A stretch of DNA of 64,000 bases from a virus (taxonomy: Duplodnaviria > Heunggongvirae > Uroviricota > Caudoviricetes), in IMG/VR virus record IMGVR_UViG_3300046311_000202; one strand, given 5' to 3'. Shown here one piece after another: positions 4,938 to 57,873 of this stretch. The first letter of the stretch is position 1. Each line of letters opens with the position of its first letter. Position numbers and translations under genes: made by a program. Under the pieces are notes generated by a model that saw nothing but the letters and a program-made list of their open reading frames with translations, was not told the origin of the DNA and did not search any database.

Positions 4938-6891
4938 AATATCAATACCTAAAGAGATTTTTGAAAACATTTTCTTTGCAGAAGGCGGTGAAAAAAAGGA
5001 TTTGTTCAAGGCACTTACTGGAGAATACCAGTTTGCCTTGAGCGAAAAAAATCCTATAGGAGAACCAAATGCAGAGATAGAAGGTGGAGAATACCTTTTT
5101 GACTCTCAAGGGATAAGAAAGGCAGAAGGTAAGACCCATGAAAAAGGGGGTATGCCAGTTAAGCTAGAAGACGGTACAAAGATTCTTAGTGACCACCTTA
5201 AAATAGGTGCAGAGATTGCTAAAAAAGTAAACAAAGATTTAGGTATTCCAGCTAGAGCTACAGATACCTATGCAAAAGTATTAGATAGATACAACAGTAC
5301 ATCAGGATTAGACAGAGCAAATGCTAAGCTTGAAGACTTGATGGGTATGATGAAAGATCAAAAAACAAGAGTTAAAGATAAAAAAACCTCTAACTTGAAT
5401 GTTGATTATATATCAAAGCAGTTGTATAGTGAGAATCAAAAGAAGAAACCTATGGAAAAAGAAAGGGAGAAACTTTTTGATATCATTTTTCAAATACAAG
5501 AAGAGAGCAAAAGAAAAGCTGAAGCCCCAGAATACAAAATGGAAGAGGGTGGAATAGTTTCTATAGCAAATAAATACGGTATAAGCGAAGAAAGAGCAGC
5601 AGAGTTGCTAGGTTTACCAAAATACCAAAATGGAGACTATGTAAAAGGGGATCTTAACCTTGATGGAGTAGTAGATGAAAAAGACAAGTACTATGACAGA
5701 TACAAAGATCTTTATAACCAAAATAAAGAACTTATTGTAAACTCATCAGGTAGACAAGACTTTACTAAGGCACCAAGAACTGTAAATACACTACCTTATA
5801 CTCCAAGAGAGGTAAGTACAAACCCTATCTGGAAAGGTACTAATTATACGAAAGCTTGGCAACCATTAGTTAGAACTAGTATGTCTGATCCAGACAAAGC
5901 GGCCAAGATTGATAAGTGGTTAACTGAAAACAAAGATAGCTACTCTCCTAATATACAAGCTCAATTAAAAGGTTTGACTGGCGAGGCTAGAATGAAAAGA
6001 ATAGAGCAGTTAGCAACGGATGAAAAACCAGGACCTTTTCATAATGCTTTATTACAAGCAATGGTAGCAGTTAATGAAGAAGAAACTCCTAAAGAGACAC
6101 CAGTTGAAGAAACTCCTAAAGAGGGGCCAGCAAAACTTGATTTAAACAAGGAGAATGAAATGGCTATTCTAGGATTACCTCAGAGGATTTACCAAACACC
6201 TACATTACAGCCATCATTAAAGGTAGCAACTAGGTTAAATAGAATAGAGCCTAACTACATATCTCCAACACAAAGTATAATGGAGACAGATAGAGCAGTA
6301 GTATCAGCAAATCAGAACATGGCAGGTATGTCAGATGCACAGAGAGCAGCAGCTAATATAGGTCTTATAGCAAACCAAGGTTCAGCAAATAACAAAGCTA
6401 TAGTAGAGGCAAACAGGTTCAACAACCAAGCACAAAATACAGCAGATATCTATAACGCCAAGATTGGAGATACAGAACAGCTATACGAAAATCAGAATGC
6501 GTTAAACTACGAAGCTAGAACACTTAAAGGATTAGCTAATTATGAAAATGATTGGCAGAACCTTAGAAACACAAGGTTTAATGATCAATTAAATAATTTT
6601 AAGACAACGGAGATGTACAATTATAACAACGCTGCAAATCCACAAATACAGTTTAGAGGAGTTAACCGAGGATATGATGTAAACTATGATCCAGATTTTG
6701 GCAAAGTACATAAGCCAGAAACAGATAACTTAACTAAACCGTTTAGCTTAAGCGATGTAAGTGATGAAGTTATTGGACAAGAGTACATAAATAGAGCAGC
6801 TAAAATAGAAGCTGATAAAAAAGAAGCTGAGAAAAAAGCTAAAGAAACCAAACCTGCAAAAAAATTCGGAGGTAGGTTCAAAAAAAAATAA
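4918..6891 (+). CDS. Structural or virion protein, function unknown. Lys/Glu-rich with a TPKETPVEETPKE mini-repeat.
   Basis: A 657-aa ORF in the late operon. Its start overlaps the upstream gene by 20 nt. Confidence 0.5.
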   Translation: MMSKSNKISIPKEIFENIFFAEGGEKKDLFKALTGEYQFALSEKNPIGEPNAEIEGGEYLFDSQGIRKAEGKTHEKGGMPVKLEDGTKILSDHLKIGAEIAKKVNKDLGIPARATDTYAKVLDRYNSTSGLDRANAKLEDLMGMMKDQKTRVKDKKTSNLNVDYISKQLYSENQKKKPMEKEREKLFDIIFQIQEESKRKAEAPEYKMEEGGIVSIANKYGISEERAAELLGLPKYQNGDYVKGDLNLDGVVDEKDKYYDRYKDLYNQNKELIVNSSGRQDFTKAPRTVNTLPYTPREVSTNPIWKGTNYTKAWQPLVRTSMSDPDKAAKIDKWLTENKDSYSPNIQAQLKGLTGEARMKRIEQLATDEKPGPFHNALLQAMVAVNEEETPKETPVEETPKEGPAKLDLNKENEMAILGLPQRIYQTPTLQPSLKVATRLNRIEPNYISPTQSIMETDRAVVSANQNMAGMSDAQRAAANIGLIANQGSANNKAIVEANRFNNQAQNTADIYNAKIGDTEQLYENQNALNYEARTLKGLANYENDWQNLRNTRFNDQLNNFKTTEMYNYNNAANPQIQFRGVNRGYDVNYDPDFGKVHKPETDNLTKPFSLSDVSDEVIGQEYINRAAKIEADKKEAEKKAKETKPAKKFGGRFKKK

Positions 6892-46776: not shown

Positions 46777-47754
46777 TTAAAATAAATCGTCTTCGTTATA
46801 TGTTTTCATTTTCTTACTGTAATCAATAGGCTTCTTGTGAAAGAAGTCTGTCAAGGCACTTGCGTAAACCTCTTCTTCCATCCATAGTGTCTGCTCTTTA
46901 ATATCAGAGTCTACTGTGAAAGCCGGTTCCATTCCAATCTTTTGTAAAGCATCGTTTAATCTTATTTGAACGTAACCTTTTAATATTCTTGCTGATAAGA
47001 AATCATTTTCGTAACCCTCTAGGATCCAATCAATCAAATCTGACTCAGCTTTGTATGCCTCTAGAACTTCGCTTTGTATTTTTTGTATGAACTCTTCATC
47101 AAATAACTCTGGATGCTCTGCTCTAATTTGGTTTAATAATGCAATACCACCTTCTGCGTGTAAATTCTCTTCTTTTGAAGTGTATTGAACAACATTTGCT
47201 ACATCTTTCAAAACTCCTCTAAATCTGTTAAACCCTAGGATAGTGTAGAACTGTGAAAATAAAGCTGTGTACTCAGTAAACAAAGTGAATAGTACTAAAG
47301 AATAACAAATATTTTTGTGGTCATTCTTATAGATCTTGTTGATGTACTTAGTTAAATAAGCTACTCTACCTACAATTACCGGCTCTGTAAAAAGATCTTC
47401 AAACTGCTCTTCTAATCCTAGCTTAGACAAAATCTCCGCATAAGCTTTTGAGTGTACTACTTCTACTCCGCCAAACACTGCCCCCATGTCTGCTATCTCT
47501 GGCTTAGGTAACAGTTTACCTATACTCGACCAATAAGACTTAACTGCAACCTCTACTTGTGAGGTAAGTAGTATGGCTCTTTTAACTACTCCTTGTTCTT
47601 CCTCTGTTAACTTTGTCTTGTAGTCTTGAATGTCATTCAAGAAGTTAAACTCATTGTGTGTCCAATGACTAGACCACATTGCATTGATAAGTGGGTCTGT
47701 AATTCCGCTGTACTCAAACGGCTTGTAATTCTTTCTTTCTGTGAAGATACTCAT
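46777..47754 (-). CDS. nrdB: Ribonucleotide reductase beta subunit
   Basis: Ferritin-like E...H motifs (EVVHSKAY and EENLHAEGG). Located next to nrdA, with a -7 box at 47835-47842. Confidence 0.75.
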   Translation of the reverse strand: MSIFTERKNYKPFEYSGITDPLINAMWSSHWTHNEFNFLNDIQDYKTKLTEEEQGVVKRAILLTSQVEVAVKSYWSSIGKLLPKPEIADMGAVFGGVEVVHSKAYAEILSKLGLEEQFEDLFTEPVIVGRVAYLTKYINKIYKNDHKNICYSLVLFTLFTEYTALFSQFYTILGFNRFRGVLKDVANVVQYTSKEENLHAEGGIALLNQIRAEHPELFDEEFIQKIQSEVLEAYKAESDLIDWILEGYENDFLSARILKGYVQIRLNDALQKIGMEPAFTVDSDIKEQTLWMEEEVYASALTDFFHKKPIDYSKKMKTYNEDDLF

Positions 47755-47908
47755 TTTGATTTTTTTGTTTTTATTAATTATTAAAGGTAAAAAAAAGTAC
47801 CCCCTAATTAAAAGAGATACTTATTATTGAGGTGCAAAGATAATAAATTAATTCTGTAAAACAAAATTAGTTAAATCTTTTTTTCAATAAAATTTTTTTA
47901 ACTTTAGT

Positions 47909-47935
47909 AAAAGAGGAAGGAATCGAACCTTCGAT
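47909..47935 (-). ncRNA. tRNA 3' fragment: T-arm GAAGGTTCGATTCCTTC plus acceptor 3' strand, with no matching 5' half found
   Basis: Canonical T-arm read on the minus strand. No D arm, anticodon arm or acceptor 5' strand at the expected distance. Confidence 0.3.
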
Positions 47936-48110
47936 GTTAACTACATACTTAATCACTTACCATGCTTTACCTAGTATATTGGGCAGTAATATTAAGTCAT
48001 CATTAATCCCACTCACAGTTCAGGGGCGACCTTATCTGCTACTCTTCCATTTGATGTCTTTCCATCAGTCAACATTGTGAAATTCTGGGGCACGTTGCTC
48101 ATAACCATTG

Positions 48111-48213
48111 TTGTCAGGACAGGTCTCGAACCTGTATGAGATGGTCAAAGCTCTCGCTGCATCTTACGGGGAGTTTTGAGGACTCCTGCGTCTACCAATT
48201 CCGCCACCTGACA
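48111..48213 (-). tRNA. Type-II tRNA of 103 nt with a long variable arm. The anticodon loop CCUCAAA parses to anticodon UCA, which would be opal-suppressor or Sec-like. It has a Leu-like D-arm and A73.
   Basis: Acceptor TGTCAGG/CCTGACA pairs 7 of 7. D-arm GGCGGAATTGGTAGACGC. Anticodon stem GGAGT/ACTCC. T-arm ACAGGTTCGAGACCTGT. The variable arm is 34 nt and forms AGATG...CATCT. Confidence 0.5.
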
Positions 48214-48360
48214 ATTTTGATAGTCTTTCCTATCAGTCACTCGTTAGATTTTGCTCTCTGGACTATATGAGTTAGCCCCGTTAACCGTAAGCATTTCGGC
48301 CCGTCTGCAACTTAACATAAACCTGTGACGAGTATTCCTTATCGTTTATGCCTTGCTAAG

Positions 48361-48434
48361 TGGACCAAGTATGACTCGAACATACGACCTTTGCATTATG
48401 AGTGCACTGCTCTAACCAACTGAGCTATAAGTCC
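48361..48434 (-). tRNA. tRNA-Met (anticodon CAU), elongator or Ile2-like
   Basis: Acceptor GGACTTA/TTGGTCC pairs 6 of 7. D-arm GCTC-AGTTGGTTA-GAGC. Anticodon loop CTCATAA. T-arm GTATG-TTCGAGT-CATAC. No CCA encoded. Confidence 0.75.
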
Positions 48435-48459: not shown

Positions 48460-48730
48460 GGCGTGTTAGGCTGCAAATCTTTTTTGCACCCCACCAAGTG
48501 TGTAAACGTTGTCGTTTAGTTTTGAAATTAATTCTCCCTATTACCTACTTATTGCCAATCAATACCTGTCACCCCCATGACACCGGCTGTTTAAGGCACA
48601 ACCGATAAAGCCTAGGTCTCTGATTTCTCAGCGACTCCACCACCTTGTTTATAGTTCAAGGAAACTTTTGTGGAGGTGGGGGCATCGAAGCCCCGTCTTG
48701 TTCAATTTCAATAATATATCAACAAATCAT

Positions 48731-48891
48731 TTCGTGATTGAGACAGGGATCGAACCTGTAAATGTGAGAGTTCAACAGGCAATATCCTCTCTCACAGCAG
48801 TTGTGTACAAACTTCTTTGCCCTCCTTGCGTTTACCAAGACATTAGCTATCGGTAAAACCCTTAGCTAGTGCCATATTCCGCCACTCAATC
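48731..48891 (-). ncRNA. tRNA-like element. A canonical T-arm and acceptor 3' strand at 48731-48760 pair 7 of 7 with a tRNA-5'-half-like sequence 160 nt away, at 48865-48891.
   Basis: ACAGGTTCGATCCCTGT-CTCAATC-A. GATTGAG-T-GGCGGAATATGG resembles the 5' end of the type-II tRNA. The intervening region forms stems. Could not be resolved by hand. Confidence 0.25.
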
Positions 48892-48976: not shown

Positions 48977-49789
48977 TTAGTTAACTGCTTTTACAAAAGG
49001 TAACGAGCCTCCAGAGTATGTGTTTGGCAATCTACCGTTCCACTTTTTAATAGCTTGCTCTTGCAATAGCTGAGGTGTAATACCACCACTTCTAATTTTA
49101 TTTTGCTCTGCTTTTAGTAACTCTAACTCATTTTTCTTCTTTTGCTCTGCGATCTCTTGATCTAAAACTGAAATGTTTGTGTTTACTTCATTACGGCTAT
49201 CAATCTTAGCTTTTACTTTGCTAGAGAAGTCAAGGTTTAAGCTGAAACTAATTAATTCTAAACCTGCTTTTTCAAACTCTTTTGTTACTATATTTTGAAC
49301 ATACTGCTCAAATCTTAGTGAACCTCCATTAGCCATTAATTGTTCTGTTGTATAACTTCTTGATGCTTCTTTTATAATATCGTAGATCCTTGGCTCCAAT
49401 ACGTTATCTTGTAAGGCACTCATAAAGTCATCTCCTGATCCTAATCTTGAATTTTGAAATACTACATCTACAACTTTACTTTGAATTACTTTATAAGAGT
49501 ACAAAGGCTTAGACGTAAAGGCTGTGTTATCAGCGGCTTTTACTTGTAATGTTCTGTCTCTACCCTCATCGTCAGTGAATTGTCCACGTTGTTCCCATGC
49601 CGGCACTTGAAATAACTCAGTCCCAGGAGAAATTGTAGATACTCTACCTTGCTGTTTAGAATAGTCATCCTTGCCATTCTTACCATAATTTTCCATCAAT
49701 ACTCCATAATAGTTTGGAGCAACTCTCTCGCAAGAGGTAATACCCATTGCTAATACTAATCCTAAAAACAATACTAAAACTTTCTTCAT
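48977..49789 (-). CDS. Lipoprotein with an SPFH/band-7-like region and a C-terminal coiled coil
   Basis: Signal peptide with lipobox (LAMGITSC). Central region resembles prohibitin/stomatin-like domains. K/E-rich coiled coil at the C-terminus. Confidence 0.5.
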   Translation of the reverse strand: MKKVLVLFLGLVLAMGITSCERVAPNYYGVLMENYGKNGKDDYSKQQGRVSTISPGTELFQVPAWEQRGQFTDDEGRDRTLQVKAADNTAFTSKPLYSYKVIQSKVVDVVFQNSRLGSGDDFMSALQDNVLEPRIYDIIKEASRSYTTEQLMANGGSLRFEQYVQNIVTKEFEKAGLELISFSLNLDFSSKVKAKIDSRNEVNTNISVLDQEIAEQKKKNELELLKAEQNKIRSGGITPQLLQEQAIKKWNGRLPNTYSGGSLPFVKAVN

Positions 49790-56055: not shown

Positions 56056-56267
56056 AATCTATTTGTTTTGATTTATATGTGCAAAGATAATACTAATTTA
56101 TTAACCCCACAACATTTTCTTGATTTATTTTTCTTCGTCTACCACTATTACCAAATAAGGTACATCTTCAAGGTACTCTATTGTACCTAGTTTCTCTATC
56201 TTTTTTGCTTGTTCAACCCCCTTTGTTTTGGCGATAAACTGCAAAGTCTGCTCCATATAGATTACTT

Positions 56268-56507
56268 TCATCTATCCTCTGAATCTTTTATGGTGTATCT
56301 ACTACGGATCTCTATCTCTTCTCCCAAGTGCGTTTTAAAAACTATTCCATCATCTGTGATTGTATAGGCATCTGTCTTCCAAGATGCAAAGTCAGTTTCT
56401 ATTGTATATCTCCCCTTAGGTAAAAGGTAAATCTCGTAAGCAATCCAAATGATTGTAATAACTACTAAAAGTAGTATAAGCTGTAATTTTGACTCTCCTA
56501 TTGACAT
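56268..56507 (-). CDS. Small membrane protein of 79 aa
   Basis: Hydrophobic N-terminal helix. Confidence 0.4.
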   Translation of the reverse strand: MSIGESKLQLILLLVVITIIWIAYEIYLLPKGRYTIETDFASWKTDAYTITDDGIVFKTHLGEEIEIRSRYTIKDSEDR

Positions 56508-56969
56508 ATTATTTGTTTTTTTAAATTAAGTTCGTCTCTCCGAACTGCCACCCATATTGTTATTTATGCTTATATGAAAAACTTATCCTAAAGTAAAGCA
56601 TAGGGATACGACCATAACAACGGCCTACGTTATAGGGTTTATAAAGATTATATTTCTACATTAGGACTCAAATGTATCTTTATTCACACAAACTATTTTG
56701 AAGTTTGTGAGTACGAATATGCAAAAATTATTAACGATATTACTATTAAAGGCATAGTGTTATTTTTTTATTTTGTTTAACGTATATATTGACAATGCTA
56801 GGAATAAAAACCATACTATCATATTACTTAACCTTTCTCTTTGTGTACTTTCTTTTAGCCTTCTCCTCCTCTATCTTGAACTTCAGTACTATTGTGTTTG
56901 GGTTTAGAAACATGTTGAACCCTGTGTTAAGGGTAATCTCTATTTCTACCACGTTTGAATTATTTGCCA

Positions 56970-57191
56970 TTATACTTTAAATTTTATAGTTTTTACTAAA
57001 TCTTTGTAATTGTTGTACTCATCAATATAGTACTTATCTTCTACTGAAGTGAAGACCCAATTTCTATCTTCTTTACTGTCTATCTCTACTAGACTTTTTA
57101 CAATCTCTTCTGCTAGTTCTGGGCTGCATCTGGAGTCATCTTTAAGTAAGTCCTCTACTTCTCTTAAAGATATAATAATAGTACTACTCAA
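56970..57191 (-). CDS. Hypothetical acidic protein of 73 aa
   Basis: ORF. A 48-aa ORF follows at about 56824-56970. Confidence 0.4.
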   Translation of the reverse strand: MSSTIIISLREVEDLLKDDSRCSPELAEEIVKSLVEIDSKEDRNWVFTSVEDKYYIDEYNNYKDLVKTIKFKV

Positions 57192-57408
57192 ACTCTGAAA
57201 CTTTTAAGTCATACAAAAAGTCCCACCAAAAATCGTATCTTGCATTGAAGTAATCTTGTGCCTCTTCTGTGTAAGAGGTTCCATCCTCAAGGTCTGATAC
57301 AATACCATTGGGAAACATATTTCTTCCCCCAACATCTCCGTAAGAAGATATTAAATCTTTATCAGCTAATTCTGATGCTACTTCTACTATGTTTATTCTT
57401 ATATCCAT
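57184..57408 (-). CDS. Hypothetical acidic protein of 74 aa
   Basis: ORF with a -7 box at 57432-57439. Confidence 0.4.
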   Translation of the reverse strand: MDIRINIVEVASELADKDLISSYGDVGGRNMFPNGIVSDLEDGTSYTEEAQDYFNARYDFWWDFLYDLKVSEFE

Positions 57409-57638
57409 TTGTTATCTTGTTAAATTCTACGCAAAGATATTACTTAATTTTTAATTGTGCAAACTTTTTTTAACTTATTTTAAATTAAAATCTGCTAACA
57501 TTCTATTTTTCTCCCCATAAGAGTACCCAACCCCTAGTTCTGCTACTAGGGATTTGGCTTTATCTCTTGTTAAACCTCTCTTAATAACCTTACCAAAAGT
57601 GTTGGTCTTAATATTAAACTCAAAGACAATATAGTTCA

Positions 57639-57869
57639 TTAAAATTCTATTGCATCAACTCTCTCTTCCCTCAAATTCTCTAATAATTTAATGTCTTCAT
57701 AAAAAACATTGCCTTGGTTGTACTGAGATAATTGTACTATACAAATATCTATTTCATATTGTTCAGTACTATCCTCTACTGATTTCATAACACTACCTAC
57801 CTCTGCTGATATAGCCAACATAGCTAAAGGAGTTATTCTAGGGTGTAGTTCTACTATATATTTTGCCAT
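57639..57869 (-). CDS. Hypothetical protein of 76 aa
   Basis: ORF. Confidence 0.4.
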   Translation of the reverse strand: MAKYIVELHPRITPLAMLAISAEVGSVMKSVEDSTEQYEIDICIVQLSQYNQGNVFYEDIKLLENLREERVDAIEF

Positions 57870-57873
57870 AATA

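Follow-up and report, generated by a model that had tools for sequence, protein, structure and literature searches.

Introduction

Why should a phage whose genes follow the standard genetic code carry a transfer RNA (tRNA) gene that appears to read the stop codon UGA? This question is raised by the virus record IMGVR_UViG_3300046311_000202 of IMG/VR (Caudoviricetes), of which a stretch of 64,000 nucleotides, here called the window, was analyzed. A reading of this sequence without database searches, below called the original prediction, had folded a 103-nt type-II tRNA on the minus strand at positions 48111-48213, here termed element D, and had parsed its anticodon as UCA, which led to the proposal of an opal-suppressor or selenocysteine (Sec)-like tRNA. 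Taken at face value, the suppressor reading would file the phage as a possible code-recoder, and this is opposed by the comparative data presented here. We propose instead, with a probability of about 0.6, that element D is a functional RNA gene derived from a tRNA-Leu, which is processed like a tRNA, can probably be charged with leucine, and serves as a non-decoding tRNA mimic.

Results

Element D has a type-II tRNA fold with a leucine-type core

From position 48213 to position 48111, element D reads TGTCAGG-TG-GCGGAATTGGTAGACGC-A-GGAGT-CCTCAAA-ACTCC-[34 nt]-ACAGG-TTCGAGA-CCTGT-CCTGACA-A; the coordinates of its parts are listed in Table 1. The predicted minus-strand fold was confirmed by the sequence and by the Rfam tRNA model RF00005, which matched exactly 48111-48213(-) within a 136-nt stretch (44.3 bits versus a gathering threshold of 29, E = 7.9e-9). 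All parts named in the original prediction were present, i.e., an acceptor stem with 7 of 7 pairs, a Leu-like D-arm, a canonical T-arm, an A discriminator, and a 34-nt variable region with its own stem, in which AGATG/CATCT encloses AGC-GAGA-GCT with the GNRA tetraloop at 48152-48155. The covariance-model alignment reproduced the GGAGT-CCUCAAA-ACTCC arm with UCA at positions 34-36 and the unusual C33 (loop C32 C33 U34 C35 A36 A37 A38) and treated about 31 nt of the variable region as an insertion. The element also shows the canonical tRNA architecture, comprising a 7-bp acceptor stem, G18G19, an anticodon arm of 5 bp and 7 nt, a 5-bp T stem, and a UUCRANN loop. A canonical tRNA-Leu(TAG) on the related viral contig L020 (1969-2043) has exactly the same D-arm, which is the commonest type in the family described below. 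Element D, a cloverleaf RNA carried by a phage, stems from a type-II tRNA and has a Leu-type D-arm and an oversized variable arm.

Standard annotation did not find this gene. RF00005 did not report element D when run on the 64-kb window or on 1.5 kb, and given the 44.3-bit match within 136 nt these misses are therefore attributable to the speed filters of Rfam cmscan. ARAGORN with default settings called only a tRNA-Met in the window and made no call at the D orthologs in L075 and L170. With relaxed settings (introns or low threshold) it returned for element D either Met-CAT with a 10-nt intron or Arg-CCG. These mutually inconsistent parses were rejected because covariation backs the GGAGU/ACUCC hairpin. 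Elongated tRNA-like genes such as element D are likely to be under-annotated by automated pipelines.

Other tRNA classes were considered and rejected. An intron-containing tRNA-Leu found no consistent intron model in the ARAGORN parses. A register shift to the Leu anticodon CAA requires the stem GAGUC/CUCCC, which does not pair, and pair 31-39 of the actual hairpin covaries; no register with a paired stem places CAA at 34-36, and element D has no Leu anticodon (NAG or YAA). The tRNA-like domain of transfer-messenger RNA (tmRNA) was discarded, as element D has U3-A70 instead of G3.U70 and no Rfam tmRNA family matched it. tRNA-Sec is characterized by a 13-bp acceptor/T helix (8/5 in bacteria), a 6-bp D stem with a 4-nt loop, and G73. 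The 8-bp acceptor, the 6-bp D stem and G73 are all absent from element D, which has a 7/5 helix, a 3-bp D stem, a D-loop of about 11 nt and A73, and the Sec-like reading was dropped. The 7/5 configuration also differs from that of allo-tRNAs, for which 8/4 or 9/3 acceptor/T configurations are described (PMC5389517).

The fold of element D is conserved and covaries

Orthologs were collected with a pattern that specified the hairpin stem and the last part of the D-arm and allowed any loop. It yielded two viral contigs, L074 and L075, which are identical over the whole element and have the loop CCGCAAA. The family scan described below contributed L170 as a third ortholog, and a metagenome scan anchored in the variable arm added 14 further loci. 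Altogether, 14 distinct orthologous sequences were obtained, 12 of which were used for RNAalifold and covariation analysis. Searches of deposited phage genomes and of E. coli genomes gave no match to element D, and BLAST found no copy in the closest relatives L001, L003 and L013, which have the tmRNA and the element E that accompany it in the window.

RNAalifold predicted the same cloverleaf with a branched variable arm for the 12 orthologs. Paired cells amounted to 99.7% in this structure, compared to 30-41% with slid partners, and the covariation score was reached by none of 500 shuffles. Compensatory changes were found at pairs 1-72 (AU, UA, GU), 7-66 (GC, AU, GU) and 31-39, the latter being CG in six orthologs, UA in five and UG in one. 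The carriers shared a mean identity of 93% within the element, a value somewhat inflated by the search pattern, which by construction left no variation in the variable arm's 3' half or in the opening bases of the T stem. Their 120-nt flanks were 57-58% identical, compared to a shuffled baseline of 56%. Every ortholog had GAGA or GAAA as tetraloop of the variable arm, i.e., the GNRA type was kept. A pairing of the loop CAAA with UUUG of the variable arm to form a pseudoknot is conceivable; neither partner varies among the orthologs, in one case because the search pattern fixed it. These data show that element D is a real, structurally conserved RNA gene under selection.

The same data bear on the idea that element D is a decaying duplicate of a phage tRNA-Leu gene, in which case drift in a pseudogene would have altered the anticodon loop and the variable arm. 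Such decay would fit the failure of ARAGORN to call the element, the presence of C33, the out-of-range variable arm, and the lesions of single copies, as the 3' acceptor strand is damaged in L229 and one G of G18G19 is lost in L226 and L232. It does not fit three compensatory pairs and near-complete pairing across 12 orthologs, nor an identity far above that of the random-like flanks, a maintained GNRA tetraloop, a hairpin loop invariant at five of seven positions, and the recurrence of the same design in at least 196 distinct family members. Because of the covariation in particular, the pseudogene reading is essentially excluded and we regard it as highly improbable.

The anticodon-like loop varies at position 34 and lacks U33

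Among the 14 sequences, the hairpin loop was CCGCAAA in nine, CCCCAAA in two, UCCCAAA in one and CCUCAAA in two (the window and L231). Position 34 was G in nine, C in three and U in two sequences; C33, C35, A36, A37 and A38 were invariant and C32 was found in 13. One and the same RNA body would thus present the anticodon GCA (Cys), CCA (Trp) or UCA (opal), and the UCA in the window is a minority state of a single freely varying loop base. The U-turn nucleotide U33 was replaced by C33 in all 14 orthologs. In elongator tRNAs U33 is almost invariant, the known exceptions being eukaryotic initiators (C33) and Candida tRNA-Ser(CAG) (G33) (PMC5041475).

As a rival explanation, the suppressor proposal states that element D is a genuine, probably weak opal suppressor, which is charged by leucyl-tRNA synthetase (LeuRS), reads UGA (and UGG) with its UCA and inserts leucine at some UGA stops, C33 attenuating the activity to a degree of read-through that the phage can tolerate. 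The covariance-model alignment indeed places UCA at positions 34-36. In 12 of the 14 orthologs, however, position 34 is G or C, and if these copies decoded, Cys or Trp codons would receive the same amino acid. One of the G34 copies, in L075, is surrounded by 26 canonical tRNAs in an array, among them Cys-GCA, Trp-CCA, Leu-TAA and Leu-TAG, so canonical tRNA-Cys and tRNA-Trp stand beside it. Apart from position 33, the loop C-C-N-C-A-A-A is that of a canonical reader of UGN codons (PMC5699536), and Candida tRNA-Ser(CAG), which decodes ambiguously with G33, provides a precedent for function without U33 (PMC5041475); on the other side, C33 occurs in every single ortholog. L231, which differs from the window copy at several other positions, also has U34, whereas the closest relatives L001, L003 and L013 lack element D altogether and most family members are unable to decode. 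The indifference of LeuRS to the anticodon (PMC9976931) would permit charging of a UCA-bearing RNA.

Stop codon usage was likewise double-edged. With 3 of the 61 stops in the window, next to 48 TAA and 10 TAG, TGA is the least used, and each of the three TGA stops is backed by an in-frame TAG after 0, 1 or 9 codons, which would suit a suppressor. However, two of the three overlap the start of the next gene by 4 nt according to the ORF (open reading frame) coordinates, and TGA stops are not less frequent than in close relatives: with an automatic caller they ended 3 of 45 genes in the window and 8 of 103 in the closest relatives, including the D-less L001, L003 and L013. As the original prediction had itself stated, no gene of the window needs recoding. 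There was no in-frame TGA in the genes of the 64-kb window, no fused or hidden ORF, and no pair of same-frame segments of at least 80 codons separated by a single TGA. Treating TGA as a sense codon revealed no gene in any ORF-free gap of the window, including 56056-57873. The very long structural ORFs of the plus strand (546-1904 amino acids) are intact, and the ORFs that only become intact with TGA as sense, for which the original prediction had suggested a scan, were absent from the 64 kb scanned.

Since all recoding tests were null, the U34 copy has left no trace in the available coding sequences, and element D is not linked to TGA recoding within this window. The opal-suppressor reading is poorly supported. 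Because the arm is so tRNA-like and LeuRS ignores anticodons, a weak suppressor is still conceivable, and we consider it improbable. The alternatives offered in the original prediction fared unequally: a manipulator of host translation comes closer to the evidence than a pre-recoding state, and a mis-parse was not the explanation. A comparison with crAss-like and other gut phages, also drawn there, did not hold, as the related contigs carry names of samples and bins that indicate freshwater lakes.

Element D belongs to a family of tRNA-Leu-like scaffolds with exchanged inserts

For 73 related viral loci fetched via the neighboring SPFH gene, a generic scanner for pairs of acceptor stem and T-arm at any distance was applied. 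It revealed a shared scaffold before any scaffold-specific pattern was used. This scaffold consists of the acceptor AGUCAGG/CCUGACU, U8-G9, the D-arm GCGGAAU(U)GGUAGACGC, which is the same as in the canonical tRNA-Leu(TAG) of L020, the T-arm ACAGG-UUCGANN-CCUGU, and the discriminator A. Between positions 26 and 48 the content differs from member to member, so that the anticodon and variable arms are replaced altogether. Element D fits this scaffold, its UGUCAGG/CCUGACA being a compensatory variant at pair 1-72 and the other features being present.

A scan with the 3' half of the scaffold identified at least 120 viral stretches. In 185,579 bacterial species representatives the same 3' half occurred in 25 contigs of metagenome-assembled genomes (MAGs), several of them short, and in no isolate genome, for which reason an origin as a phage attachment site or as a duplicated 3' end of a host tRNA was rejected. 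The MAG hits were mostly assigned to Bacteroidota (Chitinophagia, Flavobacterium, Saprospirales/Saprospiraceae, Sediminibacterium). Among the matches listed, all members of the family came from viral contigs or from a small number of binned (MAG) contigs.

The extraction gave at least 196 distinct members, 62-345 nt long, with up to seven from one locus (L086, eight pattern matches) and four from L075. The 153 inserts fell into 133 similarity clusters. Within small clusters, compensatory changes surrounded conserved loops, as in L087 versus L130, where the insert stem changed from GTTGAA/TTCAAC to GAGCAA/TTGCTC and the loop was unchanged. A hairpin of 5 bp and 7 nt in the anticodon register was found in 6 of 154 parsable members, none of which had a canonical loop; others had tetraloop hairpins in this register (L111, GGGCUC-GAAA-GGGCC; L163, CCCAUA-UUGG-UAUGGG). 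In a subfamily represented by L031 1908-1994 and L092 5430-5515, a weak hairpin in the anticodon register carries the loop UCUAGAC with C33 and a Leu-like UAG at 34-36. In the Rfam tRNA alignment of the member at L075 3062-3160, the anticodon arm was skipped via a local end, and several further members exceeded the Rfam tRNA threshold. ARAGORN called 36 of the 196 members with scattered isotypes; when introns were allowed the isotypes were again scattered (Leu in 26 of 127). An ordinary-looking 71-nt tRNA-Lys(UUU) with the scaffold acceptor AGUCAGG and the ACAGG/CCUGU T stem was present in L093 (2845-2915) and L126 (13031-13101), which indicates that the acceptor/T-arm module is common to several tRNA identities.

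The search pattern or the extraction predetermined the 3' strand of the acceptor, the T stem and U8, whose frequencies are therefore not evidence. Positions left free were nevertheless conserved. The discriminator was A in 177 of 193 members, the ten commonest contexts of the T stem, which cover 154 of 193 members, all had a U in front of it, and Leu-type D-arms predominated. The eight commonest 3-nt trailers, accounting for 190 of 207 occurrences, all began with C, and CCA was encoded only seven times.

The genomic setting of the family was that of RNA genes and small ORFs on a common strand. Canonical tRNAs within 1 kb of family elements were on the same strand in 239 of 239 cases, the nearest ORF was on the strand of the element in 161 of 196 cases, and 58 of the 196 elements lay within 50 nt of an ORF. 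In L219 (895-3042), L206 (3307-5394), L165 (370-1318) and L182 (91-2845) the elements were interleaved with small ORFan genes on the same strand at distances of 1-40 nt. Ten ORFs adjoining arrays gave no Pfam family and no named PHROG function. Homing endonucleases and tRNA enzymes were looked for with Pfam and PHROGs among these ten ORFs and the window neighbors, with no informative result. At the gathering threshold, Rfam reported for 16 related loci only tRNAs, tmRNAs, one GOLLD RNA and one group I intron; the latter two are located near tRNA genes in L020 (7493-7907, 306 bits, and 6239-6426, 61 bits, respectively). A known RNA family as insert was rejected after the RNA cluster of the window and L075 1880-3170 had been scanned permissively and no significant ribozyme or riboswitch match had appeared. 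In our literature search no earlier description of the scaffold family was found; the nearest report merely lists 'tRNA or tRNA-like' candidates in IMG/VR.

This arrangement could also reflect a role in cis. The tRNA-shaped folds would then be punctuation at which RNase P and RNase Z cut the polycistronic transcript, they may protect 3' ends, and their repeated identical ends may serve as homology blocks by which small gene cassettes are shuffled from phage to phage, the excised RNA itself having no task. RNase P and RNase Z require only the acceptor/T-arm/elbow part. The proximity to ORFs, the interleaved arrays, the accessory-type, unannotated nature of the adjoining ORFs and the several copies with near-identical ends per genome (L086, L075) would all agree with such a role. 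A processing signal, on the other hand, has no need for A73, A15-U48 and the Leu-type D-loop, which are conserved, and would not be expected to contain inserts that change in a compensatory manner around conserved loops. In the D-type, the insert with its GNRA tetraloop and near-invariant hairpin loop is kept at 93% identity across unrelated flanks, and the copy in the window sits among RNA genes and does not adjoin an ORF. Overall, a purely cis-acting role appears rather unlikely to us.

The conserved parts match the requirements for leucylation

Leucine identity comprises A73, U8-A14, A15-U48, G18G19 and A20a (PMC9976931), and the full set is present in element D of the window. E. coli tRNA-Leu devoid of its anticodon arm and its long variable arm is still charged, and charging is lost when A73 or the contacts between D- and T-arm are disrupted (PMC9976931). 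For Aquifex LeuRS, removal of the complete anticodon stem-loop caused only a 2.5-fold loss of affinity (PMC2377443). By sequence comparison, the conserved parts of the family coincide with what bacterial LeuRS needs and the variable parts with what it can spare. The same core is recognized by RNase P, RNase Z and the CCA-adding enzyme.

From these correspondences we infer processing, leucylation and a trans-acting role as mimic in the following way. Element D would be transcribed on the minus strand together with the tRNA-Met, the tmRNA and the elements A and E, excised by RNase P and RNase Z, and supplied with CCA as for a tRNA. It would probably be charged with leucine by LeuRS, because the bacterial enzyme depends on the very parts that are conserved and takes no notice of the anticodon and variable arms. 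In trans, the product would act as a tRNA mimic that decodes not at all or very poorly; a host factor that binds tRNAs might be captured by it as by a decoy or sink, or it could be a stable carrier of a structured insert. In the D-type, the insert would have retained an anticodon-like hairpin, whose loop resembles that of a UGN reader with the U-turn nucleotide changed to C.

Several points weigh against the proposal of a leucine-chargeable, non-decoding mimic. The hallmark A36-A37-A38 belongs to tRNAs for codons starting with U, including those for Cys, Trp and Sec (PMC5699536), and the D-type arm with its covarying 5-bp stem, 7-nt loop, C32 and A36-A37-A38 is near-perfect, which is unexpected for an RNA that does not decode. 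Variation restricted to position 34 (G, C and U within the UGN box) is also what would be expected from wobble switching. The Aquifex study requires that the variable arm keep its orientation and maximal length (PMC2377443), and the arm of element D is oversized. The LeuRS rules were derived from E. coli and Aquifex and not from the host, which is probably a member of the Bacteroidota. The discriminator is A in 11 of the 14 orthologs and G in the other three. Across the family, the mean folding z-score of the inserts was only -0.75, and the adjacent ORFs, which lacked informative annotation, yielded no target or partner protein for an action in trans.

Element D lies in a cluster of minus-strand RNA genes

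The window is a phage segment with 35% G+C. Its tightly packed ORFs follow the standard code and include genes for ribonucleotide reductase, thymidylate synthase and DNA polymerase; for some of the very long plus-strand ORFs no function was recognized. Between the SPFH/Band-7 gene (48977-49789) and the gene of the small ribonucleotide reductase subunit (46777-47754) lies an ORF-free region of 1.2 kb with five RNA genes, all on the minus strand (Table 1). On either strand, only ORFs of at most 48 amino acids overlap element D. Pfam and PHROGs assigned the window neighbors to SPFH, PD-(D/E)XK, glycosyltransferases, SLT and ribonucleotide reductase. Canonical T-arm hairpins number just four in the 64 kb, namely those of A, tRNA-Met, D and E. 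Promoter-like matches were not enriched, and a terminator-like hairpin was predicted downstream of the RNA cluster.

Table 1. Coordinates of element D, its parts and the neighboring RNA features in the window.
Feature	Position	Strand	Basis and remarks
Element D ('D-type' tRNA-like RNA), 103 nt	48111..48213	-	Rfam tRNA model and RNAalifold on orthologs
D, acceptor 5' strand UGUCAGG	48207..48213	-	7/7 Watson-Crick pairs with 48112-48118; family consensus AGUCAGG
D, D-arm GCGGAAUUGGUAGACGC	48188..48204	-	3-bp stem and G13.A22; loop with A14, A15, G18G19, A20a
D, anticodon-like hairpin GGAGU-CCUCAAA-ACUCC	48170..48186	-	aligned to anticodon arm by tRNA model
D, 'anticodon' U34-C35-A36	48177..48179	-	tRNA model alignment
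D, variable arm, 34 nt	48136..48169	-	AGAUG/CAUCU stem, 1x5 internal loop, AGC-GAGA-GCU hairpin (RNAalifold)
D, T-arm ACAGG-UUCGAGA-CCUGU	48119..48135	-	canonical; sequence and tRNA model
D, acceptor 3' strand CCUGACA and discriminator A (48111)	48111..48118	-	CCA not encoded; trailer CAA
Element A, 157-nt tRNA-like RNA	48735..48891	-	custom scan
Permuted (two-piece) tmRNA gene	48466..48727	-	Rfam RF04321, 51.1 bits versus threshold 47
Canonical tRNA-Met (CAT)	48360..48434	-	ARAGORN; Rfam tRNA 64.9 bits
Element E, 141-nt RNA	47908..48048	-	custom scan; acceptor-like stem, D-like stem and T-arm around a centre of about 85 nt
Terminator-like hairpin and T-run	47795..47822	-	consensus scan alone; downstream of RNA cluster

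The elements A and E share the design of element D. Element A has the acceptor GAUUGAG, which recurs in L004 (6840), L005 (3383) and L012 (5923), and a T-stem identical to that of element D with the loop UUCGAUC. It contains a 44-nt insertion within the D-loop, and 63 nt replace its anticodon arm. Its Rfam tRNA match of 24.5 bits (E = 0.003) was below the threshold and skipped both insert regions. Element E gave no significant match to the tRNA model. Homologs of it are present in L001 (6009-6150), L003 (6396-6538) and L013 (about 6232-6389), and RNAalifold on the four sequences predicted 26 pairs, five of them compensatory, with covariation in the acceptor-like, D-like and T stems. The centre of element E is swapped between relatives, the window and L001 having one version and L003 and L013 another.

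Of the whole cluster, only the tRNA-Met finds matches in deposited phages. The permuted tmRNA is kept at 57-65 bits in L001 (5495-5755), L003 (5434-5699) and L013 (5732-5994). Read by eye, the tmRNA of the window has G3.U70 in its acceptor and a tag ending in ...KRFAA. A one-piece standard tmRNA was observed in the same region downstream of the SPFH gene in the close relatives L004 (5910-6237), L012 (5445-5849), L006 (5429-5801) and L005 (2449-2777). Because these relatives with the same SPFH neighbor have a one-piece tmRNA at this place, the sequence comparison suggests that the permutation occurred inside one phage lineage.

The region 56056-57873 (1.8 kb) also stood out by its lack of genes. 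It contains no ORF of at least 80 amino acids from a start codon, its longest stop-to-stop frames being 77-85 codons and all on the minus strand. At the gathering threshold Rfam had no match in this region, and reading through TGA or TAG brought up no gene.

Discussion

Element D is most readily compared with bacterial and phage type-II tRNA-Leu, with which it shares the 7/5 acceptor/T configuration, the Leu D-arm, A73, a U directly ahead of the T stem, and an extra arm that forms a stem. Unlike these tRNAs it has no Leu anticodon (NAG or NAA) and has C33 instead of U33, and its 34-nt branched variable arm exceeds the usual size range of type-II arms. In the family, the departure goes further through the replacement of both arms. 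The same design principle is known from engineered 'tRNA scaffolds' in bacteria, in which the acceptor, D and T parts are kept for processing and stability and the anticodon region is replaced by a cargo RNA; PMC7590224 presents a related design. The family differs in being natural, in its many copies and in its Leu-type core.

Small stable RNAs beside phage tRNA genes have a precedent in species 1 and 2 of phage T4 (rnaC and rnaD), for which the T4 record gives no function. The 139-nt rnaC resembles element D in its canonical T-arm CCGGG-UUCGAAU-CCCGG near the 3' end. In contrast to element D, neither a 7-bp acceptor stem nor a Leu-type D-arm was found in rnaC and rnaD, and they show no sequence similarity and no multi-copy scaffold. 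The suppressor tRNAs of recoded phages (crAss-like and other gut phages; bioRxiv 10.1101/2021.08.26.457843) are likewise phage-encoded and located among tRNA genes, and they share the UCA of the window copy. Element D differs from them by the lack of recoded genes, its unconserved anticodon, C33, and its origin from freshwater rather than gut.

For a phage-encoded non-decoding tRNA mimic acting as a decoy, mycobacteriophage DS6A offers a precedent. Its tmRNA consists of the tRNA domain without a coding sequence and was reported to inhibit the host tmRNA when expressed in E. coli (PMC11915505). This RNA has the character of an alanine tmRNA, whereas element D has U3-A70, a full D-arm and a Leu-type core. 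The eukaryotic initiators with C33 and Candida tRNA-Ser(CAG) with G33 illustrate that a non-U33 loop can function on the ribosome (PMC5041475). These tRNAs are eukaryotic, of type I or Ser type, and have fixed anticodons, and they give no evidence for decoding by a D-type RNA.

Extending the proposal from element D to the whole family, it might tentatively be speculated that freshwater phages, probably of Bacteroidota, possess undescribed natural 'tRNA scaffolds' which can be charged with leucine and present hypervariable modules as decoys or effectors in trans against tRNA-binding host factors. Possible targets of such decoys would be, for example, tRNA-targeting defence nucleases or modifiers. 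Element D would in this case mimic a UGN-type loop whose U-turn is disabled by C33, and its U34 form may in addition give low-level UGA read-through.

The family comprises hundreds of phage RNA genes in which the part of a tRNA-Leu on which LeuRS and the processing enzymes depend is kept, whereas everything else is open to exchange, and it is largely invisible to standard annotation. tRNA-targeting immunity and the tRNA-based counter-measures of phages are an active topic, in which non-decoding, probably chargeable mimics, if confirmed, would be a new player. The family would then also represent a natural counterpart of the engineered tRNA scaffold. With more than 130 different inserts on one constant scaffold, it provides a test set.

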